Shown here: one piece after another, positions 10,797 to 43,000 of the stretch
Layout of the letters: every line of letters begins with the position of its first letter
Position numbering within the stretch: the first letter of the stretch is position 1
Origin: a virus
Virus record (IMG/VR): IMGVR_UViG_3300005841_000001
Coordinates: 37,658-101,657 of that record
Direction: 5' to 3' (one strand)
Length of the DNA: 64,000 nucleotides
Position numbers and translations under genes: made by a program
Notes under the pieces: generated by a model
What the model saw: only the letters and a program-made list of their open reading frames with translations
The model's database searches: none
Told to the model about the DNA's origin: nothing

Positions 10797-10802
10797 GAGG
10801 CG

Positions 10803-10831
10803 AGTCTAGCCGAGCTAACTCGGAGCGTCAA
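10803..10831 (-). promoter_or_regulatory. Operator-promoter repeat
   Basis: TTGACG-CTCCGAGTTAGCTCGGC-TAGACT. Confidence 0.85.
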
Positions 10832-11182
10832 CTAGAACTTCTTGCCGCCCTCGCCGGCGCGGGCCTCGCGCTGGTGGTCCAGCCGGGCGGCGTTGTACTG
10901 CATCTTCTCGCGGTAGGCGCCCTCGAGGTCCAGCCTGAACGCACCCGCGTAGTCAAAGATCCGGATCAGCGCGTCGGCCAGTTCGACCTCCTCGGCTGAG
11001 CGGTGCGGCAGATGGTCGTCGGGCCGGCCTTTGCGCACACCCTCGAGCGCCTCGGACAGCTCGGAATGCATCAGGGCGATCAGCTCACCTCGATTGCGCT
11101 CGAGCCGGCGGCCCTGCTCGTCGTACCACCAGATGTGGTTCGCCGCGTGTGCTTCTTCCGCGTACTGGTTCAATCCGTCCAC
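10832..11182 (-). CDS. MazG-like all-alpha NTP pyrophosphohydrolase
   Basis: IALMHSELSEALEGVRK ... EEVELADALIRIFD acidic metal-binding motif; EKMQYN..R. Confidence 0.85.
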   Translation of the reverse strand: MDGLNQYAEEAHAANHIWWYDEQGRRLERNRGELIALMHSELSEALEGVRKGRPDDHLPHRSAEEVELADALIRIFDYAGAFRLDLEGAYREKMQYNAARLDHQREARAGEGGKKF

Positions 11183-11195
11183 TATGGACTCCGTT

Positions 11196-14314: not shown

Positions 14315-15069
14315 GGCTCCCCACCCTCCAATTTGGTCAGTCCGATATCGGCCCGTCGGCCGGCTAGGTTTCCGTCGATGGCTCCGTAGTCGAACATCGT
14401 CGGTGGCTGGTAGTCGACCTTGTTGATGTCCGGGAACCGTTTGTTGTAGTAGTCCTCGGCGTCCTGGTCTCGGGTACGCAAGGCCAGCTCGGTTGATGGT
14501 CCCGCAGGCAGCACATGCTCCTCGTCGCGCTCTTGCTGCACCTCGGCCGCGGTGCGCTGCTCGATCTGGTCGAGCCGGATCCCGACTGCTTGGGAGTACG
14601 CGGCGTACCAGTTGCGGGCGTAGCGCTGGTAGAGCGTTTCGGTGATGAAGTCGCGGCCGGCGGCGTCGGTGGCGAGCCCATTCTGCGCCACGACCGACAG
14701 CGTTTCGAAGAGCATTTCGACGCGGTCGATGTCCACCGGTGCGCCCATCACGAGGGCACCCGAGGGCACACGGTTGCGTTTGTGGCGCAGGTGTACCGAG
14801 CGGCAGTGCACCGCGGCCGCGATGTGCGCGATCAAGACGATCTTCTCTTGCGCGAACGGCGCCTGGACAGTGATCACGCGTTCGGTGACGCCGTCGAGTC
14901 CGCGCGCGTCGTCGAGGTCTTGGGGCTGGATCGCGTGGCGCGCCATCACTTCTGCCGCATGGGACGCGTAGATCCGGGCCTCGGCTTCGGTGGCCGCCGG
15001 GTCGCGGGCCTTCGCGAGCAGACTGTTGATCGTCGCGATCCGCTTTTCGCGGGTCGGCTTCTTGGGCAT
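14284..15069 (-). CDS. DUF2786 domain protein
   Basis: KRIATINSLLAKARDPAATEAEARIYASHAAEVMARHAI matches the DUF2786 pattern; leaderless start at 15069. Confidence 0.8.
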   Translation of the reverse strand: MPKKPTREKRIATINSLLAKARDPAATEAEARIYASHAAEVMARHAIQPQDLDDARGLDGVTERVITVQAPFAQEKIVLIAHIAAAVHCRSVHLRHKRNRVPSGALVMGAPVDIDRVEMLFETLSVVAQNGLATDAAGRDFITETLYQRYARNWYAAYSQAVGIRLDQIEQRTAAEVQQERDEEHVLPAGPSTELALRTRDQDAEDYYNKRFPDINKVDYQPPTMFDYGAIDGNLAGRRADIGLTKLEGGEPWDSSKIWTP

Positions 15070-16694: not shown

Positions 16695-16733
16695 AGAAGA
16701 CCCCGTCGGCCGGTGATGGCGACGGGGTCTTCT
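16695..16733. terminator. Bidirectional terminator
   Basis: AGAAGACCCCGTCG...CGACGGGGTCTTCT between convergent genes. Confidence 0.7.
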
Positions 16734-17566
16734 TACGTCCACAATCGACTGACCATTCGCTCGAGGGCCTCGAGCAGCGGCAGCAGCGCACCGAACACCG
16801 CGAGCACTGCCACGCCGGCGCCGGCGATCGACAGCGGGAAAATCAGCCGTTTCTCTACCGCCTTGCCGGCCTTGAACCGCAGCGGCGTCGGCGAGCCGGC
16901 GGAGAACCAACGCTGCCCTTTGATCACCAGCGGGAAGAACAGCGGCGCCCCGTAGTCGGTGAGTGCGTCGCCAAGAGCGTGCACCCACGCGCCGAGGCCG
17001 ACGACCAGACCGATCATGATCGGCATCTGGTCGGCGTAGGTGCCGTGCAGCGCGAGGTACGCGGCACCGGTGAGGATGGTCGCGGTGCCGTAGTCGCGAC
17101 TCGCCTTGTGCTTGGGCGGCAACGCGCGCAGCGCCCACACCAAGAACAACCAGATCACCGCGAGGGTTGCCCAGGTACCTGGTGTCGTGCCCCAAATCCC
17201 GGCGACCGCGGGAATGCCGCCGAAGAGCAGGCCGAGGCCTGGCGGTCCGAACGGTGTATGCGTGATGCCGCGGTGCCCGTCGAGGTTCTTGCGATCACGG
17301 GCGGTCTTGGTGCGGGCGTACACGCTCGCGGACAGCGTCTGGATTGCCGCTGATCCGACAGCGGAGACGACACCGAGAGAGCGGGACGCGGTGGCGTTGG
17401 GGTGGTCGAGGTCGGGCGCGATCGCGGCGCCGGCGCACAGCATGCCGAGGGTGAGCGCGGTCGGGATGTTCATCGGCTGGTCGAGGACGGGGGCGAAGGT
17501 GCTCGCGGCAAGGCCGGCGGTCAGTCCGTGCAGGGCGTGCGTCGGTCCCATGACCATGATCGTCAT
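16733..17566 (-). CDS. Membrane-bound metal-dependent hydrolase (YdjM/DUF457-like)
   Basis: MGPTH, PDLDH, HRGITHT, HALGDALT motifs; multiple TM helices. Confidence 0.85.
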   Translation of the reverse strand: MTIMVMGPTHALHGLTAGLAASTFAPVLDQPMNIPTALTLGMLCAGAAIAPDLDHPNATASRSLGVVSAVGSAAIQTLSASVYARTKTARDRKNLDGHRGITHTPFGPPGLGLLFGGIPAVAGIWGTTPGTWATLAVIWLFLVWALRALPPKHKASRDYGTATILTGAAYLALHGTYADQMPIMIGLVVGLGAWVHALGDALTDYGAPLFFPLVIKGQRWFSAGSPTPLRFKAGKAVEKRLIFPLSIAGAGVAVLAVFGALLPLLEALERMVSRLWT

Positions 17567-19008: not shown

Positions 19009-19080
19009 GGCGCACTGGTCCAGCGGAACGGACACCCGGTTCTCACCCGGGAGACTCGAGTTCGACTCTCGGGTGCGCTA
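19009..19080 (+). tRNA. tRNA-Glu(CTC)
   Basis: Acceptor GGCGCAC/GTGCGCT, D arm GTCC..GGAC, anticodon arm CCCGG-TTCTCAC-CCGGG, T arm TCGAG-TTCGACT-CTCGG; no encoded CCA. Confidence 0.9.
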
Positions 19081-19251
19081 CGCAAGTGATCCCCGGTCAA
19101 GCGTGTCGGACTGCAAACTTCGGGGCAGGCCGACTGCGGGATTGGATCACAGGACGGGAGAAATACCGGGCAGAGCTCCCGCCCTTACCCTGGTGCGGTC
19201 TGGACCACCGCCTCTAACGACCAGGGCTCGACAGTCAGCGGGAACGGTCCA

Positions 19252-25307: not shown

Positions 25308-25817
25308 ATGCCTCACGTGATCGAACCCCTCGCGCTGCCCGCCATGCGGCAGCACACCGGGCTGTACCTCGGCCCGCGCCACGCCAAGCCGGTCACCGAC
25401 GACGTGATTTTGCAGGTCGCGCAGCGCACCACCGGCGGCGGCGCGTCCATCCTGCTCGACGTCGCCGACGTCTCCCGCGCCGTCTGCTGGCTCGTCGCCG
25501 CCACCGGACAGGACCCGAAGGTCGAGGGCTACGGCAGCCGTCGCCAGGCGCCGGGGCCGGTGCTGAACCCGTTCGTCGCCGTCGCCCGCTACGGCGACTA
25601 CGCGGACGTGCTGACCCTGTACGTCGCCGACGGCGAGGTGGTTGCCAGCGTGCAGCACTTCGCGACCGACTTCGGCAACGCGGGCCCGCAGGGCACCACC
25701 CGGCTCACCATCGTGCAGTCCGGGCAGCTGCGCGACTGGCTCGCCGCGTGGCACCTGCACGGCTGGCCGGGTGTCCCCCGCGCCGGCGCCGGCGAGCCGG
25801 CGGCGGTGACCCGGTGA
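25308..25817 (+). CDS. Hypothetical protein
   Basis: AGGAG RBS; start MPHVIEP. Confidence 0.7.
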   Translation: MPHVIEPLALPAMRQHTGLYLGPRHAKPVTDDVILQVAQRTTGGGASILLDVADVSRAVCWLVAATGQDPKVEGYGSRRQAPGPVLNPFVAVARYGDYADVLTLYVADGEVVASVQHFATDFGNAGPQGTTRLTIVQSGQLRDWLAAWHLHGWPGVPRAGAGEPAAVTR

Positions 25818-26221
25818 GCGCCGGCGGTAAGGCCGAGGCGATGTCACGCTTGGTGACGGCCTACGACCGTGTCGGCGGGTACACGGTGTGGGTGGCGAGT
25901 GAGCTCACGCCGCCGGCGCGCCCGGTGTTCGGACCGTGGCCGGCGTGGGTCGGCGCGGCCGCCGAGCTCGCCGAGACGGCGATGCGTCTCGCCGCGACGC
26001 GCATCGAGATGAGCGAGACGGACCCGGTTCCTACCGAGACGCTCGCGCCCGTCGTGGTGCTTCTCGACGAGACGGCGCCGTGGGGTCGCGTCTCGCTGGT
26101 GCGAGACGCGATGGCCCGCGTCGACGTGAACCTGATCATGGTGAACCGAGACGGTACGGTCAGCACGGGCCCGAGTCGCTTCGCGCCGGCCCGAGACGAA
26201 AACGAGACGGAGGAGCCGTGA
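25814..26221 (+). CDS. Hypothetical protein carrying CGAGACG repeats
   Basis: GTGA overlap (alternative ATG 25841). Confidence 0.55.
   Translation: MSAGGKAEAMSRLVTAYDRVGGYTVWVASELTPPARPVFGPWPAWVGAAAELAETAMRLAATRIEMSETDPVPTETLAPVVVLLDETAPWGRVSLVRDAMARVDVNLIMVNRDGTVSTGPSRFAPARDENETEEP
25972..26209 (+). repeat. Cluster of CGAGACG heptamers
   Basis: Forward copies at 25972, 26014, 26035, 26068, 26102, 26147, 26192, 26203; reverse copies at 25985, 26089. Confidence 0.75.
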
Positions 26222-26481
26222 CGCTGCCCGCCCGGAGGGACATCCGCCGTGACCTCGCGGCCGCCGTAACGATCTTGATCGGCCTCACCTTCGCTGTCTG
26301 GTCATGCGCCTGGGGCGGCCCGCCGATGATCTTCATGTGGGGCGCGTGGATCATGTTCGCGTGCGCCGCCAAGCTCGGCTTGCACGAACCGACGCCGCCC
26401 GCGCGCGACCCCGGGCTGGCCGACCCCGAGGACCCGAACGCGATGCATGTCGAGTCCGTGCGCGGGCCTGACACGACGTAG
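26218..26481 (+). CDS. Small two-TM membrane protein
   Basis: GGAGGAG RBS, GTGA overlap; hydrophobic helices. Confidence 0.65.
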   Translation: MTLPARRDIRRDLAAAVTILIGLTFAVWSCAWGGPPMIFMWGAWIMFACAAKLGLHEPTPPARDPGLADPEDPNAMHVESVRGPDTT

Positions 26482-26517: not shown

Positions 26518-26551
26518 AACGCCCCCGCACTCGTGAGTGCGGGGGCGTTTT
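26518..26551 (+). terminator. Intrinsic terminator
   Basis: AACGCCCCCGCACTC-GT-GAGTGCGGGGGCGTTTT. Confidence 0.75.
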
Positions 26552-26672
26552 CCGTGCGGAAAGGGTTGGGAAAGGATCTACAGGTGGGGGCCCATTTTCC
26601 GCCGTTCCGCGGGCCTATGGAAGGCGACGGAACAGGCCCGCGGAACGGCGCGGAAAGCTCGTGGAACGGCGG
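26548..26672. repeat. Candidate clt (cis-acting locus of transfer): GGAA-rich direct and inverted repeats
   Basis: IR GCCGTTCCGCGGGCCT/AGGCCCGCGGAACGGC, repeated GGAACGGCG, about ten GGAA/TTCC cores, immediately 3' of traB-like gene. Confidence 0.5.
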
Positions 26673-28700
26673 TCAGTTCGAGCTGGCCAGCACCTCGGTG
26701 AGCGCCCACGTCCCCTTGCTCGTGCGCCTCACCCGGCCGGCCTCCTCGTGCTCGGACAGCCGCTCGTATACCCACGACTTCTTGCGCGTGGCGGCCTCGC
26801 CCAGCTGTTCGTAGTCGAGCCCGGGCGCGCCCGCTTCGCGCAGCGCGGACAGCAGTGCGGCGCGCGCGTCTTCGTCGCTCAACCGCTCCGGCTCGGCCTT
26901 CAACGCGGCCGCGGTGGCGGCTCGACGCGCGTCGTCCTCGGCGAGCTCTTCGGGCGACATGTGCGCCCGGGCGGCCGCCTGGATGTCCTCGATCGTCGCG
27001 CTACCGTCCTCGACGAACGGCGGGATCGTCTCGGGTCCCGTCTCGCTCGTCTCGCCGTCGGTGACCTGCGCGTCTCCCTCGGCGTCTCGCCCATCTCGTT
27101 CGTCGTCTCGCATCTCGGTGACCTCCTGTCGGTTGGCGTATGCCTCGAGCTTCTCGATCCCGTCTCGGATCGAGTCGGCGTCCATCTCGGGTGTCTCGCC
27201 GCGCATCACGTCGGCGATTTGCTTCACGGTGTTGCGCGTGCCGTTCGAGCCATCGCCCACGAACACGATCCGCATCGGGATCCGGTCGAGCTTGTCGCCG
27301 TCCTGGTGGTAGCACGTACCCGGCCGCTCCGAGTCGATTTCCTCGGCGTGAACGTCACCCACGGTGATGACGAAGCTCTCGCCAGAGCTGCTCTGCATGC
27401 GGAAGCAGAACGCCTGGTCCAGCTGCTCACGGATCTGGCTCGACCCGATCGCGTCGAGGGTGGCGTACTGCGTGGCGATGATCAGCGACACTCCGACGGC
27501 GCGACCCTTGCGGGCGATCTCTTCGACCCGGAAAAGGGCCTTCGAGTCCATCTTCCCGAGCAGCGACGCAGCTTCGTCGATCGAGATCGCGAGCCACGGG
27601 TGCTCAGGTGAGCCCTCCCAGGACTTCCACCCGTACTTCTTCAGCAGCTGTCCGCGGCGCTCCACGATCTGTTCCGCGGCCTCGATCATCCGCATGGCGG
27701 ACGCGTAGTCGTTGACGATCCAGTCGAATACGCCCTCCCACGGGCCGAGCTCGGCGCCACCCTTGAGGTCGATGCCCCACTGCACGACGTCGTCGCACAG
27801 CGACAGCGTGGTCCAGATCAGGTTCAGCAGGCCGGACTTTCCCGACCCCTTGGTGCCGGCGATCAGCAGGTTGCGCGCGCCCCACCCTGCCTTGAAGATC
27901 CGCAGGAACTTCTCGGTGCCGTCGGCCCGGATTCCGACCTTGATCGGGTCGCCGCCGTGCAACGTGCGCAGTCGCGGGCCGTCCTCGGTCGGCTCGATCG
28001 GCGGCGCCCACATGATCCCCTTGGCGTGGGGGTCGTTGAGGGTGACTTGCAAGATCACCGAGTGGTTCGAGCGGCCGTCGCGTTCGATCTTGAGCGAGTT
28101 GTGCGGCAGGTCCAGTGCACCCTCGATCTCGTGCTCGATCTTCTCGACCTTCTTGATCGAGTGCATGCCCGGCTGCCACGACAGCTTGCCGACCCAGCCC
28201 ACCGCGGTGTGCGTGATTCCGACCAGGCGGGTGTCGCCGAGGCCGATCCGCGCGCCACGTACCGGCCAGTGTCGAATCAGGCCCTCGAGGTTCACGCGGG
28301 TGCGCTTGACCTGGTCCATCCAGTGTGGAATTGCCAGCACGATCGTGCCGGAAGCGAGTAGGCCCAGCGCCCACAGCCAGCCCTTGCCGGTGGAGAGTGT
28401 TGCGGCCCAGATGATCCAGCCGTTGATCGAGGTCATGATGGCGAGCCAGTGCAGCCGGCGCCATCCCTCGGGCACCCGGGTGACCACCCAGGCGGTCACT
28501 CCGAGGGTCCACGAGACCATGCAGATGGCCAGCAGCAACGTCTCGATGGTGATGTTGGCGAGGATGCCCATGATCAGCACGGGCACCGCGAGGTACACCG
28601 GCGCGAGGCCGATGCGGTGCATCCGCAGCCACTCGACGAGGCCGTACGATTCGACCTCCTCGACGGCCGGGGCAGAGGTCTTGCGCTTGCCCATGCTCAT
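26673..28700 (-). CDS. traB: TraB-like FtsK/SpoIIIE conjugal DNA translocase
   Basis: N-terminal TM helices, Walker A GTKGSGKS, IDLKGG, Walker B ISIDE, ARKGRAVGVSLIIATQ, acidic linker, C-terminal winged helix (YEQLGEAATRKKSWVYERL..GRV..GTW); start may be 28694. Confidence 0.85.
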   Translation of the reverse strand: MSMGKRKTSAPAVEEVESYGLVEWLRMHRIGLAPVYLAVPVLIMGILANITIETLLLAICMVSWTLGVTAWVVTRVPEGWRRLHWLAIMTSINGWIIWAATLSTGKGWLWALGLLASGTIVLAIPHWMDQVKRTRVNLEGLIRHWPVRGARIGLGDTRLVGITHTAVGWVGKLSWQPGMHSIKKVEKIEHEIEGALDLPHNSLKIERDGRSNHSVILQVTLNDPHAKGIMWAPPIEPTEDGPRLRTLHGGDPIKVGIRADGTEKFLRIFKAGWGARNLLIAGTKGSGKSGLLNLIWTTLSLCDDVVQWGIDLKGGAELGPWEGVFDWIVNDYASAMRMIEAAEQIVERRGQLLKKYGWKSWEGSPEHPWLAISIDEAASLLGKMDSKALFRVEEIARKGRAVGVSLIIATQYATLDAIGSSQIREQLDQAFCFRMQSSSGESFVITVGDVHAEEIDSERPGTCYHQDGDKLDRIPMRIVFVGDGSNGTRNTVKQIADVMRGETPEMDADSIRDGIEKLEAYANRQEVTEMRDDERDGRDAEGDAQVTDGETSETGPETIPPFVEDGSATIEDIQAAARAHMSPEELAEDDARRAATAAALKAEPERLSDEDARAALLSALREAGAPGLDYEQLGEAATRKKSWVYERLSEHEEAGRVRRTSKGTWALTEVLASSN
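27027..27198 (-). repeat. Second CGAGACG cluster inside traB linker (opposite orientation)
   Basis: Plus-strand CGTCTCG at 27027, 27039, 27048, 27083, 27104, 27161 plus one-mismatch copies at 27071, 27092, 27111, 27183, 27192. Confidence 0.7.
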
Positions 28701-28761
28701 CTCCTTTACGGGCAGGGCCCGGCCGAGGAGTCCCCGGCCGGGCGCGTCGTGTTTTTCCTGG

Positions 28762-29991
28762 TCAGCTGCGTGCCGGCGCGATCGCCGGCGCGGTGAGCAT
28801 GCCGCGCAGGTACGGCCAGTAGTACGTTTCGAAGTCCGCGATCACGGTGGTCAGACCGCGCGCGGTCTGCGCCATGCCTTCGCGAGCCATCCGCATCCCG
28901 GGTCGCGTGATCGACATGTCGATGTTGCAACCGCGCTGCGGACCACCCGGTCGATTCAGGGTGCGCTCTGCCGTGTCGAGCGCCTCGGCGCCGACGACGA
29001 ACGCGCGCTCGAGTCCGACGATCCAGGCGCGGAGTTCGTCGAGGGTCCACGGCTTGTCCGCTCGAGGCTTGAGCTCACCCCACGCGAGCAGCGCCTGTTG
29101 CACATTGCGTGCCTCACCGCAGTCGGTCATCGCCTTTTCTCCAATCCTGACGAGCTGGTCACTGTGGGCCTTGATGTAGTCCTCGGCCTTGAACCGGCGC
29201 CGGCGGTGGCCGGGGCGGTGTCGCCCGGCCGGCGTGCGCCGGCGGCCGCGGCGTCCGTGCGCCGGCGGCAGGACGCGTACGGTGCCTGCCGTCGCCTTCG
29301 TCGTGCCGGGGGCGAGCAGGGCCTGCTCGCCCGAGCCGGTCGCCAGTGACGCCTCGCCTTCGTGCTCGGCGAGCCAATGCGCGTTCAGCGCCTCGGCGTT
29401 GGCGTAGGTCTTGTCGCAGCACTGGAACTTCGAGCCCCACCCTGCTGGGCGTCGCTTGCGCGGCGAGGTCGCTGCCTGGGCCGCACGCCGGGCGCGGGCC
29501 CGCTTCGCAGCTTTGGCCGCTTTCGTGGCAATGCGCACTGAGCCGGCGGTCGTCGCCCCTGCGCCGACCGCCACCCACGCCACAGCGCGGGTGATCTTCA
29601 TCTTCTTGGGGATCCGGTGCACGAACTTCTTGCGCGCCTTCCACCGGTCCTTGGTGGTCTTCTGCTTCTTGGTCTTGGGCGTCTTGCCCGGCTTCAACGA
29701 CGCCGGCAGCTTCGCCGGCTTGGCGCCCACGGTGCCGGTTGCCGTCGCGGCCGCGACCTCCGCCGCCCGGCGTTGGGCCCGGGTCTGCTTGACCTCTCCG
29801 GTCTGGGCGAGCATGCGCAGGGCCTCGCGCGCCTGCTCTTCGCGACCAACCTCATGGCGCAAGCTTCGCTTGGCGCCGGTACCCAGATCAGCGTCGGCGG
29901 GCCTGTTGGTGTCAGCGTTTCGTCGACGTTGCCGCGCGGTTCGCTCGTCCCTGCGCAGGGTCCCGTCCCCGAGTCGCTCAGGCTGGCTCAC
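28762..29991 (-). CDS. Basic protein with one TM-like segment and C2H2-like finger; probable transfer/spread accessory
   Basis: FQCCDKTYANAEALNAHWLAEH; GTG overlaps DUF2637 stop; co-oriented with traB. Confidence 0.65.
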   Translation of the reverse strand: MSQPERLGDGTLRRDERTARQRRRNADTNRPADADLGTGAKRSLRHEVGREEQAREALRMLAQTGEVKQTRAQRRAAEVAAATATGTVGAKPAKLPASLKPGKTPKTKKQKTTKDRWKARKKFVHRIPKKMKITRAVAWVAVGAGATTAGSVRIATKAAKAAKRARARRAAQAATSPRKRRPAGWGSKFQCCDKTYANAEALNAHWLAEHEGEASLATGSGEQALLAPGTTKATAGTVRVLPPAHGRRGRRRTPAGRHRPGHRRRRFKAEDYIKAHSDQLVRIGEKAMTDCGEARNVQQALLAWGELKPRADKPWTLDELRAWIVGLERAFVVGAEALDTAERTLNRPGGPQRGCNIDMSITRPGMRMAREGMAQTARGLTTVIADFETYYWPYLRGMLTAPAIAPARS

Positions 29992-30767
29992 TGTGCGATC
30001 GCCTCCTTGGTCTCCTGCTGCTGCGCGAGCCACGTCGCGCGCACCTTCCGGCCGAGCGTCGGCCGGGTGCCGAGGTACTGCGCACCGAACCGGTCCAGTT
30101 CGGCGCCGGTGGTGTCTCCGTGCTCGTCGAGGTAGCGCAGCATCGCGTCACGGGGGCGGCTACGCAGGTCGTCGGTGAGCCATGCCGGCGCGCCGGCGAC
30201 AGGCAAGGCCTCGCCTTCGCCGGAGAGGACTCGCAGCGACGTCCCCGTAGCGGGCGCCGCGTCCGGCTCGACCGCTACCGGGGGGGCGGGGACGTCGCTG
30301 CTGGGAACCCCCGACGCTGCTGGTGACGGCACAGCAGCGGCGGGGGCGGCCTTGCGAGCGCGCTTGATGCGCGGCTTCACGTCGAGGCGGACCAGCTTCA
30401 GGATCAGTTCGTACGCGAACGCGAACGCGGCGGCCGGCCACATGTTGATCACCTGTCCGGCGGCGTCCGCCGCGGGTGCGGAGAAGTTCGCTACCAGGGA
30501 AATCGCGAGCGCGACCACGATCGCTACAACGGCGAGCGCGGGGACCTTTTCGCCGTTGCGGCGGGCCTGCACGACCACGATCGAGGCAACCACCATGAGT
30601 GCGTCGACGGACAGCGGAGTGAGCCACGAGAGCCACTCGGTTCCGGTGGCCGCGTGGTGGGCAGCGAGCTCCCGCATGTGCACGTAGCTGGCCGTGGCTG
30701 CCACGCCGGCGACCAGGCCACCGAAGCCAAGACCGGCGTTCCGGACGCTTGCGCTGGTGCTCGACAT
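29988..30767 (-). CDS. DUF2637 / Spd-like membrane protein
   Basis: AATASYVHMRELAA..WLTPLSVDALMVVAS..SLVAN..WPAAAF..ELI four-TM pattern, Pro/Ala linker, C-terminal HTH-like region. Confidence 0.8.
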   Translation of the reverse strand: MSSTSASVRNAGLGFGGLVAGVAATASYVHMRELAAHHAATGTEWLSWLTPLSVDALMVVASIVVVQARRNGEKVPALAVVAIVVALAISLVANFSAPAADAAGQVINMWPAAAFAFAYELILKLVRLDVKPRIKRARKAAPAAAVPSPAASGVPSSDVPAPPVAVEPDAAPATGTSLRVLSGEGEALPVAGAPAWLTDDLRSRPRDAMLRYLDEHGDTTGAELDRFGAQYLGTRPTLGRKVRATWLAQQQETKEAIAQ

Positions 30768-30818
30768 GCCCACTCTTCCTGTCGATTTGTCGACTGGTCA
30801 GTAGCTACGGTTTGTACG

Positions 30819-30857
30819 TACCACTATGCAACTGGTGCACCCAGTTGTAAAGTGGTA
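30819..30857. promoter_or_regulatory. Inverted-repeat operator between divergent tra operon and GntR gene
   Basis: TACCACTATGCAACTGG-N5-CCAGTTGTAAAGTGGTA (15/17 match) in a lower-GC intergenic region. Confidence 0.7.
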
Positions 30858-30887
30858 GCCACCAGTGGATCGGAAGGGAATACGAAC

Positions 30888-31631
30888 TTGACCAAGAAAC
30901 AGGACGTAGCGGACGCCCTTCTCGAGGCGATCACCGCTGGTCAGCTGCGTCCTGGCCATAGGTTGCCCTCGGAGCGAGAGCTGGCCGACAAGCACAGCGC
31001 CAGTCGCGAGGCCGTGCGCGGCGCGCTGCACCTGCTCGCCGAGACCGGCCACGTCTACGCCGAACACGGATCCGGCTGGTATGTCCGCGACCTCGAGCCG
31101 CTGCGTTACCCGCTGCACACCATCGACGCCGGCCGAGCCAGCGCCACCGCCGACGTCTGGGACAAGTTCGTGCTCGGACTGGGGCGCACCGCAGGCAGTG
31201 AGCTCATCGTCAACCCGAGCGTCATCCCGCCCGAACGCATCCGCGCGAAGCTGGGACTCGAGTACGGCGAACCCGCGGTCGAGCGGCGCCGCGTCCGGCT
31301 CGTCGACCGCGAGCCGTGGATGATCTCGACCGGGTGGTGGCCGCGGTGGATCGCCAAGGGCACGGACATCGAGAAGCCGCACCAATGCTCCCCGCTGAAG
31401 ATCGCCGGACAGCTGGGCCATGGGCAGTTCAAGAGCGAAAACGAGATCGCTTCACGGATGCCGTTCGGCTCCGAAGTCGAGGTGCTCAAGACCGGGCGCG
31501 GCGTCCCGGTGATGGACATGCTCACCACCGGATGGGACGAGGGCGGCCGCGCAATCCGCTGCACGTCCGATGTCTTCCCTGCCCACCGGTTCCTGCTGGT
31601 TTTCCAACACGACTGGAGCGACGGAAGATGA
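30888..31631 (+). CDS. GntR/HutC-family repressor (KorA/TraR/KorSA-like) with UTRA domain
   Basis: IxAGQLRPGHRLPSERELADKHSASREAVRGALHLL..G..GSGWYV; UTRA ERRRVRLVDREP; TTG start. Confidence 0.9.
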   Translation: MTKKQDVADALLEAITAGQLRPGHRLPSERELADKHSASREAVRGALHLLAETGHVYAEHGSGWYVRDLEPLRYPLHTIDAGRASATADVWDKFVLGLGRTAGSELIVNPSVIPPERIRAKLGLEYGEPAVERRRVRLVDREPWMISTGWWPRWIAKGTDIEKPHQCSPLKIAGQLGHGQFKSENEIASRMPFGSEVEVLKTGRGVPVMDMLTTGWDEGGRAIRCTSDVFPAHRFLLVFQHDWSDGR

Positions 31632-32448: not shown

Positions 32449-34044
32449 GTGGCCAAGCGTGAGTTCCTGCCCGCATTGCGCGGCCTCGCCGCCGCCGTGT
32501 GGGGCAGTGGCGCCGTGGAGTCCAAGGACCTCGCGCAGCGGGTGCGCGCATCCTCGGCCGGCTACCAAACCCCTGGTCAGCCCTACGTCGATAACTGGAA
32601 CGTCCGCCGCGCCACGAAGGAAGCCTACGAGGGAAACCCGCTGGTCTACCGGGCCATCGAGGTCATCTGCCAGCAGGCGATCGCCCAGCGGATCATTATC
32701 CGCCGCGGTGACCCGGAGGAAGGCCCGATCGTCCGCCCCGGCAACGACCCAAGTCGCCTGCTCTACGTGCTCAACCGCCGGGCGAACCCGTGGGAAACCG
32801 CGCTGATCTTCCGGCATCGGCTGGTCGCGCAGTTCCTGCTCTCTTCGCGCGGCGTCTTCATCGAGGTCATCCGCACGCGCTCGGGCAAGATCGGCATCCT
32901 CAACCTCCTCGACCCGGACCTGTGCGCGAACATCCCGGTCGAAAAGCGCGATCCCGTCACCAACGAGGTCCTCGAGTCCGACCCGATTGGCGTGGTGGAA
33001 GTCCAGGTCCCCGGAGGCGGGTACGACTACCTGCCCCGGTTCAACCCGCACGCCACCGCTGAGAACCAGCCGGCTTCCGTCCTGTGGATCCGCTCACCGC
33101 ACCCGCTCGTGCTCTGGCGGGGCATGTCCCCCGTTCAGGCGGCTGGCCTGCCGATCGACCTCGACCGTTACGCCCGGATTTACAACCGCCGGTTCCTCCA
33201 GAACGACGGCCGGCCCGGCGGGCTGATCTCGATCAAAGGCACCGTCGACAAGGGCACGATGGAGCGGATCCAAGCCCAGTTCAACGGCGGCCCCGAGTCG
33301 GCCGGCCGGACCACCGTCGTCGAGGGTGACTCGGTCAGCTACGCCGACACCTCCGGCAGCCCCCGGGACATGCTGTGGGGTGAGCTGTCGAACGCCACCC
33401 GCAAGGACATTGCGATGACCTTCGGTACGCCCGAGTCGGTGCTGGGAGACGCGTCCGGGCGCACGTTCGACAACGCGGATGCCGAGTGGGAGATCTTTTG
33501 GGAGGGGCGAATGAAGCCCCTGCTGGGCACGTTGGACGATCAACTCGACGTGCTTACTGGCGGGTACGACGACGACTTCTACCTGCGTCACGACCTGTCC
33601 AAAGTGTACGTTTTGGGTCGTCACCAGCGCGCCGAAGAAGATCGCGCCGTTGCCGACTACGACAAGGGCATCCGCACCATCGACGAAGTTCGGGACGTCA
33701 AGAGGCTGAGGACGTACGACATCCCCGCTACCCGTGTGCTCTGGCTCGCCGGCGGCAAAATCCCCGTCGGGCAGGACGAGGCCGACACCGAAGCGGCCGC
33801 CGCGCTCCAGACTGCCGGCATCGGACAACCGGCCAACGCCGGCGCCGAAGCGCAGGCCGGCGCCGCGGTTGGGTCGGCGCTCGGCGCTCGGATCTCTGCC
33901 AACGACAACGACGCCCGCGTCCTGCGCGTGCAGTCTTCGCGCGCGGACCTCGAGCCGGCCCTGGGCACCAAGGCGCTGCCCGCGGAGGATCCGGAGGGTG
34001 AGCAGAGCCGCGCGCGAGCCGTACGCACCCCTGAGTGGCGATGA
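32449..34044 (+). CDS. Portal protein (HK97 type)
   Basis: VYRAIEVI, LLYVLNRRANPW, GMSPVQAA, NDGRPGGLI, IAMTFGTPESVLG, TFDNA, TIDEVR. Confidence 0.92.
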   Translation: MAKREFLPALRGLAAAVWGSGAVESKDLAQRVRASSAGYQTPGQPYVDNWNVRRATKEAYEGNPLVYRAIEVICQQAIAQRIIIRRGDPEEGPIVRPGNDPSRLLYVLNRRANPWETALIFRHRLVAQFLLSSRGVFIEVIRTRSGKIGILNLLDPDLCANIPVEKRDPVTNEVLESDPIGVVEVQVPGGGYDYLPRFNPHATAENQPASVLWIRSPHPLVLWRGMSPVQAAGLPIDLDRYARIYNRRFLQNDGRPGGLISIKGTVDKGTMERIQAQFNGGPESAGRTTVVEGDSVSYADTSGSPRDMLWGELSNATRKDIAMTFGTPESVLGDASGRTFDNADAEWEIFWEGRMKPLLGTLDDQLDVLTGGYDDDFYLRHDLSKVYVLGRHQRAEEDRAVADYDKGIRTIDEVRDVKRLRTYDIPATRVLWLAGGKIPVGQDEADTEAAAALQTAGIGQPANAGAEAQAGAAVGSALGARISANDNDARVLRVQSSRADLEPALGTKALPAEDPEGEQSRARAVRTPEWR

Positions 34045-35353: not shown

Positions 35354-35510
35354 AACGCCGACCGGCCCCGTCCATCTCGGGGGAGTGGACAGGGCCGGTC
35401 AGGCGTCAGTACAAAATCGAACGGCTGGACGCTACCGCAGCGCCCCCCATGGTCACAATCCCTCGCGCGCCTCCCCGGCCGCGGCGTTCCCGCCTGCGAC
35501 GATGTCGCCC

Positions 35511-36953
35511 ATGGCAGAAGAGCAGACCGGCGGCATGATCGCCCTCATCCCGCGCGCGCAGGATGCCGCCGCGCTGGTCGTTCCGGGCGGGGAAACCGCT
35601 GACGAGATGCACCTGACGTTGACCTTCCTCGGGGATGACATCAGCGGGTGGGACGCCGGCCAGATCGCGGCAGCCGCCGGCGCCGCCGGCTCGGCCGCGG
35701 CGCAGCTTGCCGCCATCACCGCACGCGTCATGGGGCATGCGGTGTTCAACCCCGACGGTCACGCCGATCGCGAGCCGTGTGCGGTGTACCTGGTCGGGGA
35801 CTCGAACGTTCTCGCGCCGCTGCGCAACGCGCTGGTGCCCTACGCCGACCACGAGCAGCATGAGCCGTACCTGCCGCACATCACCGCCGGCTTCGGCGTG
35901 CCGGTCGGCAAGCTGACCTTCACCGGCCCTGTCGTGTTCGATCGCGTGCGGGTGGCGATCGGTCCGCAGGTCCTGGACTTCCCACTCGGCGACGCGGAGG
36001 AGATCAAGCGGATCATGGCCGAATTCGAGACCGAGACCAAGGGCAATATGCCACCCCAGTTCGCGGCCAACGCGGCGAAGAAGAAGGGCGCCGGGAAGTC
36101 CGACGACAAGGGCGGTACCGACGATAAGGGCATCAACAACATCGGTGACCTCGCAGCCGCGGTGAAGCGATACAAGGCAGCCAAGCCCGAGGCGCAGGCC
36201 GAGCTGTGGCCGAAGCTGAGCGCGGCTGCGAAGAAGCTCAAGGCCACCAAGATGATCGCCGGTCTCGCGCCCAAGGGCGGCGCCGGGAAGTCCGACAACA
36301 GCGACGAAAAAGCCTTGTTCGAGGCTGTCGCGCTCGAGTTCAAAGTCACCAGCGAAGACCCTCGCGCGATCAAGATGCGCCGGTGGTGGGCGATGTCGGC
36401 CAAGGCGCGCGCGATGTGGAAGCCCGGCGTTCCGGGCGACTTCAAGCGTCTGGTGCGGGCGCTCAAGGAGCACACGAGCATGCCTACTCGGATGATCAAG
36501 GGCTTCGCCGCGAACGTGCATCACCTCGCTCTCGGCGCATGGCCAGGACGCGAAGGACGCAAGGAGGCTTTCGACTGGCTCGACATGATCGAAACCAAGG
36601 CCGCGCACGAAGGGGAAATGGTGGACGGTCGCGCATTGCTGGAGCAGTACAAGGCGATTCGGTCCCAGCTGGACGCGGCCATCGATGATGACGAGGACGG
36701 CGACACCGAGGCATCCGGTGACATCGCCGATGTGGGGGCGGGCGATGACGGAGTTTCGCCCGAAGAGGTCTATGACGAGGCGATGGACCTGGACATCGAC
36801 TGGGCGCTGGAGGGCGATGGCAGCTTGTCGGGCGGCCCGGACGAGGAGCTTGACTCTCCGAGTGAACCCGGAGAGAATAGCGAGGCCGACGAGGATGACG
36901 ACGCCGAGCTGGAGGAGCTCGAAAGCCTCTTCAACGCCGGCGCGTCCAGGTAG
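35511..36953 (+). CDS. 2H-phosphoesterase (LigT/Acb1-like) head-associated protein
   Basis: Two HxT motifs HLTL and HITA; later W.PGVPGDFKR..GFAANVH..GAWPG segment; acidic tail; start 35502 or 35511. Confidence 0.8.
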   Translation: MAEEQTGGMIALIPRAQDAAALVVPGGETADEMHLTLTFLGDDISGWDAGQIAAAAGAAGSAAAQLAAITARVMGHAVFNPDGHADREPCAVYLVGDSNVLAPLRNALVPYADHEQHEPYLPHITAGFGVPVGKLTFTGPVVFDRVRVAIGPQVLDFPLGDAEEIKRIMAEFETETKGNMPPQFAANAAKKKGAGKSDDKGGTDDKGINNIGDLAAAVKRYKAAKPEAQAELWPKLSAAAKKLKATKMIAGLAPKGGAGKSDNSDEKALFEAVALEFKVTSEDPRAIKMRRWWAMSAKARAMWKPGVPGDFKRLVRALKEHTSMPTRMIKGFAANVHHLALGAWPGREGRKEAFDWLDMIETKAAHEGEMVDGRALLEQYKAIRSQLDAAIDDDEDGDTEASGDIADVGAGDDGVSPEEVYDEAMDLDIDWALEGDGSLSGGPDEELDSPSEPGENSEADEDDDAELEELESLFNAGASR

Positions 36954-37012: not shown

Positions 37013-40000
37013 ATGACCGTGCCCGCAGGGCTGGAGTACAAGACCGCCGGCACGCTCACGCCGGAGATCCCGCCGGCGCTCGCGGGGCCGAAGCACGAGG
37101 GCATCGTCACCGCCATCGTCGCGGTTACCGGCGTCAAGGACGATGTCGACGACGTCATCATTCCCGGCGCGTTCAAGCGGACTCTTGCCGAGCGACGACC
37201 CAAGGTCTGCCTCGGACATGACTGGAATCGTCCCATCGGCAAGACCCTGGACATCAAGGAGCTGATGCCGGGCGACCCTGACCTGCCGAAGACCACGGGG
37301 GAGGGGCAGCCGTGGCCGGTCGAGGCCGGTGCCGTCATCGCGCGTTCGCAGTACAACATGGACACCGAGGACGGCCGGAAAGCCTTCCAGGATGCCATGT
37401 TCTACGGCGAGCAGGAGTGCTATCAGTCCATCGGGTACCGTGTCCCGCCGGAAGGTAAGAAGTTCAAGGGCGGCGTGCGCTATATCCATGACCTCGACCT
37501 CTTCGAGTACGGGCCTGTACTGCACCCGGCGAACCGGCTCGCCACGATCCAGTCCACGAAGGACGACGGCGGAGCTCGCGAGGACAACGCCGTCAAGCCA
37601 GCCGAGATCAAGGCGCGAAAGTACGTCAAGGATTCCGCGTACTGGGGCTTGCCCGTCGGAACTTTGATCACGCCCGGCATGAAGCCGCGCGGTCGGACTG
37701 CGCTCGCCGAACGACGAGCAGGCAAGACTCCCGACCGCAACGCCGGTGTTGCTACCGAGCCGCTCAAGCCTTCGCCCGCGACCGGGAAGCCGCGGTCGGT
37801 GCCGCACAAGCCCGAGAAGGCGAAGGAAGAGCGCGACTCGGCCGGCCTCTTCCCCGAGCCGGACGCGCCCGAGGGTGCACGGGTCAAGCCGTCCGACCCG
37901 CAGGGCCTCGACGCCGAGCACGTGCAGGATCTCGTCGAGAACGAAGCCGGCGAGCAGGACCACGTCGCGCGCGATCACGCGTTCAACGGCCTGATCGATG
38001 AGGGCATCACCCCGGCCGAGCTCGAAGAGGACTTGCGCGCCTCCGAGCACTGGCCTGACGAGATGCCCGAAGAGGACCGGCAGGCCCGGATCGACGACGT
38101 CGTCAACGACTATCGCCGGCAGTACCGCCGTGAAGCTGCGCGCCAGGCCAGCAACCCCGAACCGCGCGAGCAGCACCCCGATGACGACAACCTCGCCGTC
38201 GAGAAGGAAGAGGCCGAAGGAACCGCGAAGCCCGAACTCGAGCCGGATGCCAAGCGCGACATCACTACGCTGACGCCCGAGGAGCTCGACAAATACATGG
38301 AGGTGGCCCGAAAGGGTTCGCTGTCCAACGTCGGGGACAAGCAGCGTCGGTACCAGGACGTGTACGCCAAGGCGCAAGCGGAAAAGCTGCGCCGCGCTGA
38401 CGTCGAGCGCCGGTCCGTGCCTGCGCATCCGCTTGACCCCAAGGCGTACGCCGAAGCCACCCGCGCCGTCGAGGCGCGACGCGGCCGCGTCGCCGACGTG
38501 CAGCGACGCAACCAGGAAATCAGCAAGACCAACGCGCAGATTGACGCGTCCGAAGAGGTTGCGACGAACGCGCCCGAGACGATGAAGAAGCTTCCGGCTG
38601 GTGCCGGGAAGAAGGTGTCGAAGGCAGGCAACGGCCGAGTCGCTTTCCGTGGGAAGGGCACAGCGAACTGGGCCATCGTGTCCGCCGATGGCCGAGCCAT
38701 CGTGTCGCCGCTGAACTTCGAGAGTGAGGGACGCGGGAACGTCAAGCTGTCCGGCCCGCAGCTGGATGAACTTGCCGATCGGATCGTCGGCATCACCAAC
38801 TCGAAGGGCGACCGCGCACCGTTCACTGACCCCGACTCTGAGAAGTGGGTGCCCGGCTTCCGCGACTCCGATGGGCGCAGCCTCGAGCAAGCAGTGTCCA
38901 AAGTGGTCGCCGACTACGCGAACGAGCGCGGCCTGAAGTCGGGCACGCGCACGCGCATCGGTGCGGACTCCGTCCCATGGGGCCACAAACAGGGTGAACA
39001 CGGCGTGGTCAACGCCGAAGGGTTCCACCCGCAGGAGCGGATTCAAGACGTCGGTATCGGCGACCAGGTGAAGCTCCGCAACGGTGATGTCAAGACGATC
39101 GCGAAGAAGGAGGAAGCCACCGGCTCGCAGCGGGACCGCTACGGTGTCGACGTTTTCACGCTCACGTTCGACGACGGTACGACCGAGAAGTTCAGCACCG
39201 GCCAACGGTTCGACACCAAGTACAGCGACGAGAACAACCCCGACGCCGAAGGCCGACTCAACGACCCGGGCATGGGGTACACCAGCGACTCGAACCTGGG
39301 CAGCAAGCGGGACAAGCTGCGTCCGACGTTCAAGGGCGACGGCGACGTGCCCGCGGGGACCCGGTTCATCTACACCCCGGATCGCGCCGACGGCGACAAC
39401 CGCCCCCGTGTCGGCACCGTCACCGACCGCGTGATGAACGCCAACGGGCACGAATTTCAGGTCGTCGAGTACGACGATGGAACTTTCGATGGCGTCAACG
39501 TCTCGAAGCTCGCGGCCGACGGCAAGATCAAACTCAAGCCGACGCCCGAAGACGAGGCCGATGCCCGAGCGCAGTGGGGTGTCGGTGACGGTGCAACAGA
39601 AACCGGTTCCGACTTGGGAGAAGGCGAGTCGGACACCGAGGATGTTGGAGCGTCCGAGGGCGACGGCACGCCACCCGAGGGTGAGCCGGCCGACGACACC
39701 GCGCCCGAGGGCGATCAGCCACCCGCGGCCGATGACGACGAAGCCGCCCGGGTCGCCAAGCTCGGCGCCGAAGACAATCCTGACCGCACCCCGATCGCCG
39801 GCCTGGCGAACCAACTCACCGGCCAGGCGAAGCCGGACGTCTCCGACGTCAGCACCGAGGACCTGAACGCGCTGGACCAGGAGTTCGCCCGGCGCGCCGA
39901 CCTGCTCGGCAAGCCCGGCGCCGTCACCCGTGCACACCAGGCGGTCAAGGACGAACTGACCACTCGGACCGACACCGGTGCCGAACCGGCCCCAGAGCCG

Positions 40001-43000
40001 GACGGTGGGCTCGGCGCCGACGAAGCGGTGATCAGCCGCGCTGAAGTCGATGACGCCCAGCGCATCGCCGACGAAATCCTGGGTGTCACCGAGGGGCCCG
40101 ACGGCGAGCTGGAAGCCGACCCCGACGTAGCCGACCGGCAGGATCGCGTGGAAGCCCTGCTCGATCAGGCCGAATCCGGCGCACTCGACCTCGAGTCCGC
40201 CAGTGACGATGTCGTGACCGGACAGCGGCGGGACCTGGTCGAGGAGCTGCGGTTCCAGAACGCTGTCGCTCGGCGTGACAGCCGACAGCGGCAGATCACC
40301 CGGGCCGATGAAGGCGGCCGACAGCCCCGCGCCGAAGGCGACACTGAGCCGGATGCCGGCACGGAGGCGGAGGGCACCGGACCCGCGCCTGAGTCGAAGG
40401 CGCGTCCGGGCGTCGCCGGCGCGGCCGAGGACCTCGCCGATGCGCTCGATGACAACGACCAGCAGGCCGCCGCCGCCGCGGTCGCTCGGCTCGAGTCCTC
40501 GGTGCGTCGTTCCCGTTCCGATTCCGAGCACCTCGCTCCCCTGCGCGAAGCTCTCGCCGGCGACGGCGGGATCCAGGCCGCGCTCGACGCCGGCACGATC
40601 ACTCCCGCAACGCTGCGCGACTTCGCGAAGAACCTGCGCGACGAACGCCGGCAACAGGCCAACACTCGAGCCCGCGCCCGACGCACGGTCAAGCGGCTCG
40701 AGCGTGAGCGGTTGCGCGGCCTGATCGGCGCCTACGACACCGAGCTGCGCCGGCGCAACCTCGAGCCCGAGAACTTCGGCGGCCTGGTGCCTGCCATCGA
40801 CGAGGGCGCCGGCCGGCCCGAGGTGACCGGGGATGCCGACCTGCCGGAGGGCACTGAAGCCGGCGAGCTGGATGTCAGCAATGCTGAGACCGGCCCGAGC
40901 GGCGAGCGAGCCTCCCGGCTGGTCGCCGAGCCGTGGCGGGTCGTCAACTCGGACGATGCCGCGATGAACGGCGGCGACGCCACCTCGGCGGCCACCCGGA
41001 AGGCCGCCGCCGCCGCGTTCGCCGAGGTGGCCGACAAGTATGCGCCGGTCCTGCGAGAGGCCACGCCCGAGCAGCTCGCCGCCGCCGAGGCGAAGCTGGA
41101 CAAGCGGGGCGCCGACGTCCGCAGTGAAGCGATGGTGATCGCCCTGCTGCTGCCCCGCGGGACGCAGCGAGACGCCTTCATGGCCGACATGCGTACCGCA
41201 ATGGGCAACTACCAGACCAATCTCGCAGCCCTACAGGCTCGCGCCGACCGCGGCGAAGTCAGCCTCGACCCGGCGCCCGAGCTGGGTTCGATCGCGCCCG
41301 GGCGCGTCGGGTGGGGCGGCCGGCTCAATGCGCTGGCACCTCGCCAGCGAGCAGACCGGCCGGCCGGTACGCCGCCGTTCAGCACGGTCTCGCAGGTCAA
41401 GAGCAACCTCAAGTCGCTGACCGCGCCCGCCGGATCGAGCGACTTCGAGCAGAAGACGTTCACCGAGGGCCGTGACCAGTTGATTCGCGAGATCGACGCC
41501 GCCGGCAACGACGTCTTCCTCTCCCCTGGTGGTGGGCTGCTCGCTTTCCGGGCCACCACCCGCGACGGCAAGCGCTGGTTCTTGATCCATACCCAGAGCG
41601 GGCAGTCCATCCCGTCGCTGTTCAACTTCGACGGTCGACAGACCGCCCTCACTCCGGCCACCGGACGCGGTGTGGAAGCTCAACGCTACGACCTCGACGG
41701 GCCGGCCATGCGTCGACTGATGACCGCGTTCGAGACCATGCAGGATCCGCGCGGCCGGCAAGTCGACTTCACCGAGTCGGATCCGGATCGGTTCGCGCAG
41801 AACTTGGTCGGGTGGCGAGACTTCTCCGCTGACGGAACCGTGCGCCCGGCCTTTGTGGATGGACGCCCTCGCTACAACGATTCGATGGAAGGGGCCGCCA
41901 TTCTCGAGGCGGTCCGCGATGACATGCGCCGCTACGGCACCACCTCCGCAGTGCACCGTGCGACACAGATGGTGGCAGGCGGCACCGAGTACACCGGCGT
42001 CAACGGACGCAGCCCGCAGCAGTACCGGCAACTGATGAACGAGCAGTTTCCGTTCGCGTTGCAGGACTTTAACTACGGGCGCAAGCGAGTGCGCGGCATC
42101 GGCCCATCCGAAGACCGCACGCCGGGGGAGCTGAAGAGCGACAAGGACACCGCCGCCGCGATCGATCAGGCACGCGCACTGATCCAGACCGGTAACCCCG
42201 TCGAGGCAGTGTCGGTGTTACGTGCCCGCGCGGCTGAGCTCAAGGACACCGACGGCGAGCGCGGTGGTCGGTTCGGCTCGCAGCGGCTCGAGGGCCTGGC
42301 CAACCAGACCGCCGACCTGTTCTCGCCGGCGCAGTCCGATATGGACCGTCTGATCGGCGCGCAACAGAATGACGTCATCGCGGTGGCCAGCACCGACGAC
42401 GAGCCTCCGATGTTGTTCCGGCTCACCGTCGAACCGCGGCTCGTGCTCACCCGCAATGACGGCACCCGGCTTTACCAGGCCAGCGTCACCAGCGACCGCA
42501 TGGGTGACCAGGACGTCACCATCGACACCGCCGATCAGTACGGCGTGCGCATTGGCGATCGGTCCGCCACCCGCGAGCAGACCAACCTCGGTCAGTCCGG
42601 AATCAACCAGTGGGCGGTGTACCGCGCCGAGGAAGGGCAGGGCGCGCCGGTGGACAACACGCAGATCTTGCGCGATTCGAAGCGCACCCTGCGCGAGTTC
42701 GACCGGTCGGCCGGGTTCGGCGACGGTGAAGACGAGGGCGATCAGGGTGGTGGCGGGGGAGGGCCAGACCAGGGGCCCGACGGCGGCCCCGATGAGACCG
42801 GCGGTGAACGACCGGTGGCCGCCGAGGGAAAAGCGATCACCGTCGACCAGGCCAAGATCGGCGACCTGGTCGCCATCCCGTCCGGACAGGATGAGCCGCC
42901 GTTCGTCGGGCACGTCATGGGCAAGAACGTCCTCGAGGACACCCGGGCGCTGCTCGTGCTGGGCCCGCAGGGCGATGTCCGCACCTACCCGCTGGACGCC

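Follow-up and report, generated by a model that had tools for sequence, protein, structure and literature searches.

The 64,000-nucleotide stretch analysed here (the window) is the final part, bases 37658-101657, of the 101,657-bp IMG/VR virus record IMGVR_UViG_3300005841_000001, and next to its portal gene lies a set of genes and repeats laid out like the transfer module of Streptomyces plasmids: an operon encoding a DUF2637 membrane protein, a basic zinc-finger protein and a TraB-like DNA translocase, a divergent GntR-type regulator gene, and a repeat-rich, clt-like locus that starts at the translocase stop codon. The record has a 120-bp overlap between its ends, maps as a circle and is rated 100% complete by CheckV. 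Portal, MuF-like, HK97-type capsid, sheath, tube, tape measure, LysM/NlpC-P60 and baseplate J proteins are all encoded in the window, and because sheath, tube and baseplate genes are among them we take the tail to be contractile, as had been proposed in an earlier reading of the sequence (the original prediction). By its gene content the carrier is a complete, contractile-tailed (myovirus-type), uncultured phage, with a high-GC actinomycete as its putative host; the guanine plus cytosine (GC) content of the window is 64-75% and stays even over this module.

The putative transfer module and its cis site

In the original prediction the region beside the portal was read as an operon of DUF2637, C2H2-finger and FtsK-type genes, the ATPase having N-terminal transmembrane helices and a C-terminal winged helix, with a GntR-UTRA gene divergent from the operon across an inverted repeat and a repeat-rich locus behind it, and the whole was taken for an intact TraB-type module. 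Pfam matches and structure models place all of these parts where they had been read (Table 1), and the regulator, putative SpdB2-family protein, motor and cis repeats stand in the gene order of Streptomyces plasmids. The repeats do run from the ATPase stop codon, and a conserved core and flanking arrays were found beyond what had been described.

Table 1. The putative transfer module, its cis site and the terminase and portal genes, in window coordinates
Feature	Position	Strand	Remarks
Large terminase	4836-6311		26 kb upstream of portal
Distal array, CGAGACG x8	25972-26210	+	in 3' part of convergent coding gene 25748-26221
Terminator	26518-26549	.	15-nt perfect GC-rich hairpin and T run; between convergent genes
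~30-bp conserved core	26558-26590	-	CCACCTGTAGATCCTTTCCCAACCCTTTCC on the traB strand; alignment of 14 intergenic regions
Stop-proximal clt-like repeats	26596-26672	.	CGCCGTTCC x3, direct and inverted; 17-nt inverted repeat; GGAA/TTCC cores; abut traB stop
TraB-like dsDNA translocase, 675 aa	26673-28700	-	Pfam PF01580, E 1e-10
Second distal array, CGTCTCG x6 on + strand	27027-27167	-	CGAGACG on traB strand; in TraB acidic-linker codons
Basic protein with C2H2-type finger, 409 aa, pI 11.3	28762-29991	-	conserved at same position in relatives
DUF2637 multi-pass membrane protein, 259 aa	29988-30767	-	PF10935, 56 bits
17-nt inverted repeat, TACCACTATGCAACTGG / CCAGTTGTAAAGTGGTA	30819-30857	.	divergent promoter region; candidate GntR operator
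GntR/HutC-type regulator (winged helix-turn-helix and UTRA) in TraR/KorA position	30888-31631	+	PF00392, PF07702
Portal	32449-34044

In the AlphaFold2 model of the ATPase (predicted local distance difference test score 81), four N-terminal helices (residues 33-128) are accompanied by a beta domain and an FtsK-type motor; an acidic linker that is disordered (528-564) and, at the C-terminus, a winged helix (609-667) complete it. The N-terminal helices are hydrophobic, and sequence analysis points to them as a membrane anchor. Searched with Foldseek, the model finds the motors of TcpA and FtsK as its best matches, with E values of 1e-16 to 1e-18. The Walker A motif reads GTKGSGKS and the Walker B motif DE, and both motifs (GxxGxGKS and DE), together with 56 alignment columns, are invariant across 24 proteins whose identity goes down to 33%. 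PF01580 is the sole Pfam match, and none of the FtsK alpha, 4TM and gamma domains (PF17854, PF13491, PF09397) was found in the protein.

Among family profiles the best by far is NCBIfam NF041214, plasmid_TraB, which scores 137.9 bits (E 4e-40) and aligns residues 59-669 of the ATPase with positions 40-634 of 639, whereas the FtsK profile PRK10263, to which a true FtsK scores 409 bits, reaches only E 0.05. We calibrated the plasmid_TraB profile on known proteins: pWTY27 TraB scores 952 bits, pJV1 Tra 784.5 (itself just short of the 800-bit equivalog cut-off), a Tra protein from an integrative and conjugative element of actinomycetes (AICE) 140, members of the phage clade 103-153, chromosomal FtsK 72 with a partial alignment only, Gilgamesh gp10 54, a BE-cluster FtsK-like protein 24 and the pZL12 tra protein 20. 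Since it misses the cut-off, the phage ATPase is not classed as a TraB equivalog; the model is a narrow one, because pJV1 Tra, AICE Tra and the pZL12 tra protein themselves score 784, 140 and 20. Identity with plasmid TraB proteins is about 25-29%. In a tree rooted on chromosomal FtsK, 19 phage-clade proteins form one group (Shimodaira-Hasegawa-like approximate likelihood ratio support 99), joined weakly to plasmid TraB (82), with a clade of chromosomal, AICE-type homologues alongside (98) and FtsK split off (100), a placement away from chromosomal FtsK, among the Tra proteins of plasmids and AICEs, that is in keeping with the original assignment. Judged from its sequence, the ATPase is TraB-like over its full length, not FtsK-like, and sits with the plasmid and AICE Tra proteins.

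In the DUF2637 protein the membrane part is followed by a Pro/Ala linker and a small C-terminal helix-turn-helix (HTH)-like domain. PF10935 also matches the DUF2637 protein of plasmid pWTY27 (25 bits), which, judged by its position, is probably the open reading frame (ORF) that the authors of the pWTY27 study name SpdB2-like (PMC3583192). A tblastn search of phages and plasmids with the window protein gave no match, the family being detectable by profiles only. The start of the next gene overlaps the DUF2637 stop codon (GTGA), suggesting translational coupling, and its basic product carries a finger that reads C-C-x12-H-x4-H here, with adjacent cysteines; two residues separate the cysteines in 9 of 11 relatives, six of which have the full C-x2-C-x12-H-x4-H pattern. 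Its model shows a beta-beta-alpha fold for the finger and, with confidence, a bundle of helices at the C-terminus. It matched no family in Pfam, NCBIfam or PHROG and no fold in the PDB, and had no usable Atlas neighbour; a comparison of its C-terminus with plasmid TraA by hhalign gives a weak hint of likeness (E 1e-3, probability 22%).

The longest ORF of the regulator begins at 30654 (30654-31631). The true start is probably the TTG at 30888, which is preceded by a putative ribosome-binding site, GGAAGGGA, and with the start put there the divergent intergenic region measures about 120 bp. At the position of the inverted repeat that it contains, one relative (L004) has another palindrome.

Behind the ATPase gene the stop-proximal repeats include a perfect 17-nt inverted repeat (26600-26616 / 26634-26650), and three of the nine copies of CGCCGTTCC in the genome fall inside 72 bp at the 3' end of the gene. 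Short repeats that are specific to each lineage, present as direct and as inverted copies, start at the traB stop codon in the window and in 13 relatives, and in the window and 9 of the 13 they flank the core of about 30 bp. The core, which reads CTGACCTGTAR..ACTCCCCCAGCCCCCTC (ACCTGTAR...CTCCCCCAGCCCCCTC) in the relatives, is single-copy in the genome and is kept across phages that differ in their flanking repeats. Scanned against Rfam, the cis locus gave no family for it, only noise below threshold. A degenerate form of the core pattern matched two proviruses that have no TraB homologue, and we took these matches as chance. The terminator hairpin recurs at the same relative position in most relatives that bear the core.

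Two further arrays of short repeats lie about 250-750 bp either side of the cis site, the second inverted relative to the first. Over the 1.8 kb concerned CGTCTC/GAGACG occurs 17 times, against 43 times in the remaining 62 kb (Poisson 5e-14). In the first array the motif is spelled by scattered codons for ET/RD dipeptides in otherwise ordinary coding sequence, which points to selection at the DNA level. The two-array layout is present in 9 of 14 genomes (the window, L004-L008, L010, L012 and L016), with up to 53 copies in 1.8 kb and an enrichment among the relatives that reaches Poisson 1e-64. The motif differs by lineage, being CCGGGAC(A) in L005-L008, CGGGAA in L010 and L012, and CGGGGA in L016. 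Strictly converging polarity is seen in the window, L004, L007 and L010, and orientations are mixed in L005 and L006. The recognition motif of plasmid pSVH1, which we take to be GACCCGGA, would if so resemble the CCGGGAC arrays of L005-L008. Between the first array and the terminator, convergent on traB, is a small ORF (26215-26481, + strand) that has two hydrophobic helices and no family match.

Relatives and known systems

Relatives in IMG/VR (the L loci) were found by an alignment-based scan, a single-protein scan having given none. Full-length homologues of the ATPase fall into about 46 clusters with 32-89% identity, all of them metagenomic. The three-gene operon recurs in 17 IMG/VR loci, mostly back to back with the genes for the portal, MuF, a 2H protein and a giant protein, and in seven of these (L004, L007, L009-L012 and L014) the order is portal, (regulator), DUF2637 gene, middle gene, traB. 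Operon, position and cis site recur together in at least 13 divergent metagenomic relatives, in which portal identity is 47-56% and ATPase identity 28-41%; two more genomes of the clade are complete, at 101.2 kb and 94.5 kb. The same operon thus stands at the same place beside the portal in many divergent phages, the comparison by which the original prediction could be judged, and by this distribution the module is an old, conserved and vertically inherited part of the phage backbone.

That the block does not look like a whole inserted AICE had also been part of the original prediction, and this held: neither an integrase nor an att site accompanies it. An AICE that had inserted recently or is in decay, or a chimeric assembly, would account for the plasmid-like gene order and for nothing else. 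Against it, the operon keeps its place in the at least 13 divergent relatives and is flanked by phage genes in all of them, the phage ATPases make up a clade of their own, the catalytic motifs are all intact and GC is uniform. Because operon and portal-side place are conserved in divergent relatives and the phage proteins form their own clade, we regard both insertion and chimera as refuted, and the probability we leave to them is negligible.

The nearest cellular homologues of the ATPase share 27-35% identity with it, often over almost the full length, and belong to NUDIX-HTH-Tra-integrase islands (in Actinoplanes, Asanoa, Actinoallomurus, Streptomyces and others), which is the AICE layout. 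AICE Tra proteins, of the type of the pSAM2 and SLP1 islands, are thus its closest cellular counterparts and score equally against the TraB profile (140 bits), but they form a separate clade and sit in integrase islands, and no phage genes were seen within 10 kb of these chromosomal homologues.

Among plasmids the likeness extends to the whole module. The Streptomyces plasmids pSVH1, pWTY27, pJV1 and pIJ101 share with the phage a divergent GntR gene, a membrane protein of the putative SpdB2/DUF2637 family, a terminal FtsK-like motor with a winged helix, repeat-rich cis sites that run from the tra stop codon, and a TraB profile that matches from end to end. A GntR gene is divergent from an operon with a DUF2637 protein, TraA and TraB in pWTY27 and in a 14-kb S. 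anulatus plasmid (NBC_01414), and from traA-traB in pJV1. In pSVH1 the GntR regulator TraR binds upstream of spdB3 and is the probable regulator of spdB3-spd79-spdB2-orf108-traB, and spreading requires SpdB2, a membrane protein that forms pores (PMC4447253). By our own comparison, the clt loci of pJV1 and pWTY27 likewise start from the tra stop codon and share the two-cluster form (PMC3583192). The phage differs from these plasmids in that no TraA homologue was recognised, the basic zinc-finger protein occupying TraA's place, and in that its cis site consists of the 30-bp core and two arrays of 6-50 short repeats, compared with 4-9 repeats in a plasmid clt. In pWTY27 itself (L022) a phage major capsid gene, at 10642-12102, lies directly downstream of traB and clt, as was also noted in PMC3583192.

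A phage that also transfers by conjugation has an experimental precedent, as far as the accounts that cite it go. The Streptomyces plasmid-phage pZL12/phiZL12 (GQ919031; Zhong et al. 2010) is cited in PMC3583192 and PMC4487206 as having a transfer locus, and its transfer is stated to require an FtsK-like tra gene and two neighbours (PMC3583192). Like the phage studied here it combines virion genes with a GntR gene divergent from an operon that ends, by the head genes, in an FtsK-like tra gene; unlike it, pZL12 has ParA, ParB and an integrase and lacks a DUF2637 gene. Its tra protein is 22% identical to the phage ATPase over 246 residues. Its record has no sheath or baseplate gene annotated, and no direct search for one was made. 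On a further plasmid, L121 (NZ_CP109240.1, S. albidoflavus, 86 kb), a GntR gene diverges from a long operon whose last gene is FtsK-like and lies beside a terminase gene, a pZL12-like layout that suggests another plasmid-phage.

Gilgamesh gp10 and its counterparts in BE-cluster phages (Tomas gp114) are FtsK/SpoIIIE motors as well, but the TraB profile covers their motor only (54 and 24 bits), and these phages are without the GntR-DUF2637-TraB operon; in Gilgamesh a DUF2637 gene lies about 67 kb from the FtsK gene. SpdB2 homologues on the actinophages phiC31 and VWB have been suggested to help the spread of phage DNA (Thoma et al. 2015, PMC4447253). That report notes the SpdB2 homologues only, whereas here a putative SpdB2-family protein occurs together with a TraB-type motor, a regulator and a cis site. 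The plasmid and AICE TraB-clt-Spd systems, the plasmid-phage pZL12, the FtsK-like genes of actinophages and the SpdB2 remark on phiC31 and VWB were known; new are the occurrence of the whole set in a myovirus clade that shows no genes for lysogeny or plasmid life, the calibration of the profile, the conserved core and the flanking arrays. Our literature search found no paper on the full TraR-SpdB2-TraB-clt set as a conserved phage backbone.

What the module may move

The gene content gives no sign of a stable lysogenic state. Tyrosine (PF00589) and serine (PF00239) recombinases are absent from the whole 101.7-kb genome, and the former from all three complete clade genomes searched (this one, G006 and G001); ParB (PF02195) and an AAA_31-type ParA (PF13614), checked like the serine recombinase in this genome only, are absent from it as well. 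A CbiA-type ParA (PF01656) is also missing from this genome, G000 and G006 being the two complete clade genomes for which its absence is recorded. An HTH_3 (CI-type) repressor was matched neither in this genome nor in G006, and only below threshold in G001. The same searches found ParA and integrase in pZL12, in Gilgamesh and in the Gilgamesh-like plasmid CP108533. The inspection for partition and integrase genes suggested with the original prediction therefore returned none, and in this the carrier, a 101-kb phage without a recognised partition gene, differs from the Streptomyces plasmids; replication genes were not searched for. PLSDB holds no member of the clade, the best portal matches there being 35-37% identical and of the Gilgamesh group. 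A scan of one genome for each of 185,579 species yielded 305 loci, and among the best 80, which were examined, no clade member appears, the shared part being the ATPase alone at 27-35% identity. Missing matches are weak evidence, yet they argue against a stable plasmid or an integrated prophage.

The reading that we consider likeliest, with a confidence somewhat above even, is that the module moves the phage's own double-stranded DNA (dsDNA) through membranes and septal walls or between hyphae, loaded via the repeats. Under it the GntR/UTRA repressor, in the TraR/KorA position, would control the divergent operon, which would supply the DUF2637 (SpdB2-family) membrane protein, the basic zinc-finger protein and, anchored in the membrane, a hexameric motor of the FtsK kind. 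The winged helix of the motor would dock on the short repeats around the 3' end of its own gene, and the motor would pump unprocessed phage dsDNA across the membrane and septal wall into an adjacent compartment or a touching hypha, so that the phage genome could spread without a virion. The homology, domain architecture, gene order, cis-repeat architecture and clade-wide conservation described above are what we observe; from there we infer DNA binding, pumping, the phage genome as the substrate and the stage of the life cycle. That the substrate is the phage genome is argued from the lineage-specific cis site at the 3' end of traB in nearly all relatives. The gene content, in which nothing points to a stable lysogen, favours productive infection, a stage we hold at least as probable as transfer from a lysogen.

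A stronger version supposes that the clade is virulent and that its TraB/SpdB2-type machine is a "movement system", which would pump replicated genomes through cross-walls and perhaps into touching hyphae; we regard this as possible, with the probabilities leaning clearly against it. A single adsorption would then convert many host compartments, resistance based on receptors or on development would be bypassed, and the converging repeat arrays would serve to load the pump onto the phage genome and to set its orientation there. If true, this would be a bacterial counterpart of the movement proteins of plant viruses.

Several observations weigh against the transfer of phage DNA by a TraB-type machine. 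The clade is known from metagenome sequence alone. FtsK-like genes are frequent in actinophages, and papers on Streptomyces phages interpret them as developmental or replication genes (PMC13587820, PMC11536984). The ATPase scores far under the 800-bit equivalog cut-off of the profile that identifies it, and the tree is a quick search with two FtsK outgroup rows and weak support for plasmid TraB as sister. The link between DUF2637 and SpdB2 is one of shared Pfam membership, a direct hhalign comparison with the pWTY27 protein being weak (E 0.002, probability 13%), and several relatives have no GntR gene or a different one. Recognition helix and motif both follow phylogeny, and their covariation, inseparable from shared ancestry, does not single out the repeat that the winged helix would read.

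The original prediction had favoured a dual-mode conjugative phage or phage-plasmid, that is a plasmid prophage which, besides forming virions, passes from lysogen to recipient by means of TraB, much as pZL12 does. Its TraB-type module stands, but the phage-plasmid state and conjugation from a lysogen do not find the support it does, ParA, integrase and lysogens not having been found; nor was the idea new in kind, pZL12 and Thoma et al. 2015 (PMC4447253) having come earlier. The pZL12 precedent, with its virion genes and a GntR-controlled operon whose tra gene is stated to be needed for transfer (PMC3583192), speaks for such a life, as do the existence of Gilgamesh-like elements as 125-145-kb plasmids in seven Streptomyces strains and one Thermobispora strain and the circular map of this genome with its 120-bp end overlap. 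The three complete clade genomes nevertheless lack HTH_3 matches, and also the tyrosine integrase and CbiA-type ParA by which pZL12, Gilgamesh and CP108533 differ from them, PLSDB and the best 80 of the 305 species-genome loci hold no clade member, the close homologues are exclusively metagenomic, and pZL12, whose tra protein is so distant, has no DUF2637 gene. We hold a phage-plasmid life to be improbable.

About equally improbable, in our view, is a device for segregation, in which pump and centromere-like arrays would keep a low-copy replicon across closing septa, or load spores, in place of ParAB. Relatives of FtsK/SpoIIIE clear DNA from septa, ParAB was not found, and the two arrays of short repeats with a site between them recall both the centromeres of plasmids and FtsK's KOPS/dif logic; set against this are a protein that is TraB-like, not FtsK-like, over its whole length, a partner put in the pore-type SpdB2 family, a gene order of transfer operons, and no sign of a carrier state. 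Less probable still is a pump that acts on host or competitor DNA, for takeover, superinfection exclusion or mobilisation of host DNA. The PHROG families that match the ATPase are labelled "moron/host takeover", and published notes tie phage FtsK-like genes to host development (PMC13587820), but nearly every relative has a cis site of its own lineage right at the 3' end of this gene, which argues for the phage genome as the substrate.

If the module does move phage DNA, tailed phages of filamentous actinomycetes gain a second, particle-free route of spread, plaque size, containment by mycelial development and receptor-based resistance in Streptomyces-like hosts would be read differently, and the boundary between phage and conjugative element would be blurred from the phage side. 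Unlike in pZL12, the module is here an old backbone, in a clade without visible lysogeny or plasmid genes.

Neighbouring genes and Gilgamesh-type elements

The gap between terminase and portal holds minus-strand early genes, a tRNA-Gln (14535-14626), a tRNA-Glu (19009-19081) and a YdjM-family gene (16733-17566). Behind the portal and MuF genes lies a 522-aa head-module protein (35385-36953, + strand) with matches to 2'-5' RNA ligase/2H phosphoesterase families as well as to a PHROG that bears the label head maturation protease, and such a 2H-type head protein is conserved beside MuF in the relatives too. Next comes a 2957-aa protein (37013-45886, + strand), whose N-terminus is 38-53% identical in relatives.

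The nearest isolate is the 129-kb Streptomyces phage Gilgamesh, with a portal identity of 35%. It resembles the window phage in having its terminase remote from the portal, a portal-MuF fusion gene and a giant protein downstream, a gene of about 4600 codons standing where this phage has its 2957-aa protein. Eight plasmids, 125-145 kb in size, encode a portal of the Gilgamesh type that shares 35-37% identity with the one in the window (CP108533.1, NZ_CP108441.1, NZ_CP122459.1, NZ_CP107934.1, NZ_CP107821.1, CP109288.1, NZ_CP070374.1 and NZ_CP039125.1), and on their account Gilgamesh probably belongs to a phage-plasmid group. FtsK-like genes are listed for four of the eight, and in CP108533 ParA, a tyrosine recombinase and a DUF2637 gene were confirmed.

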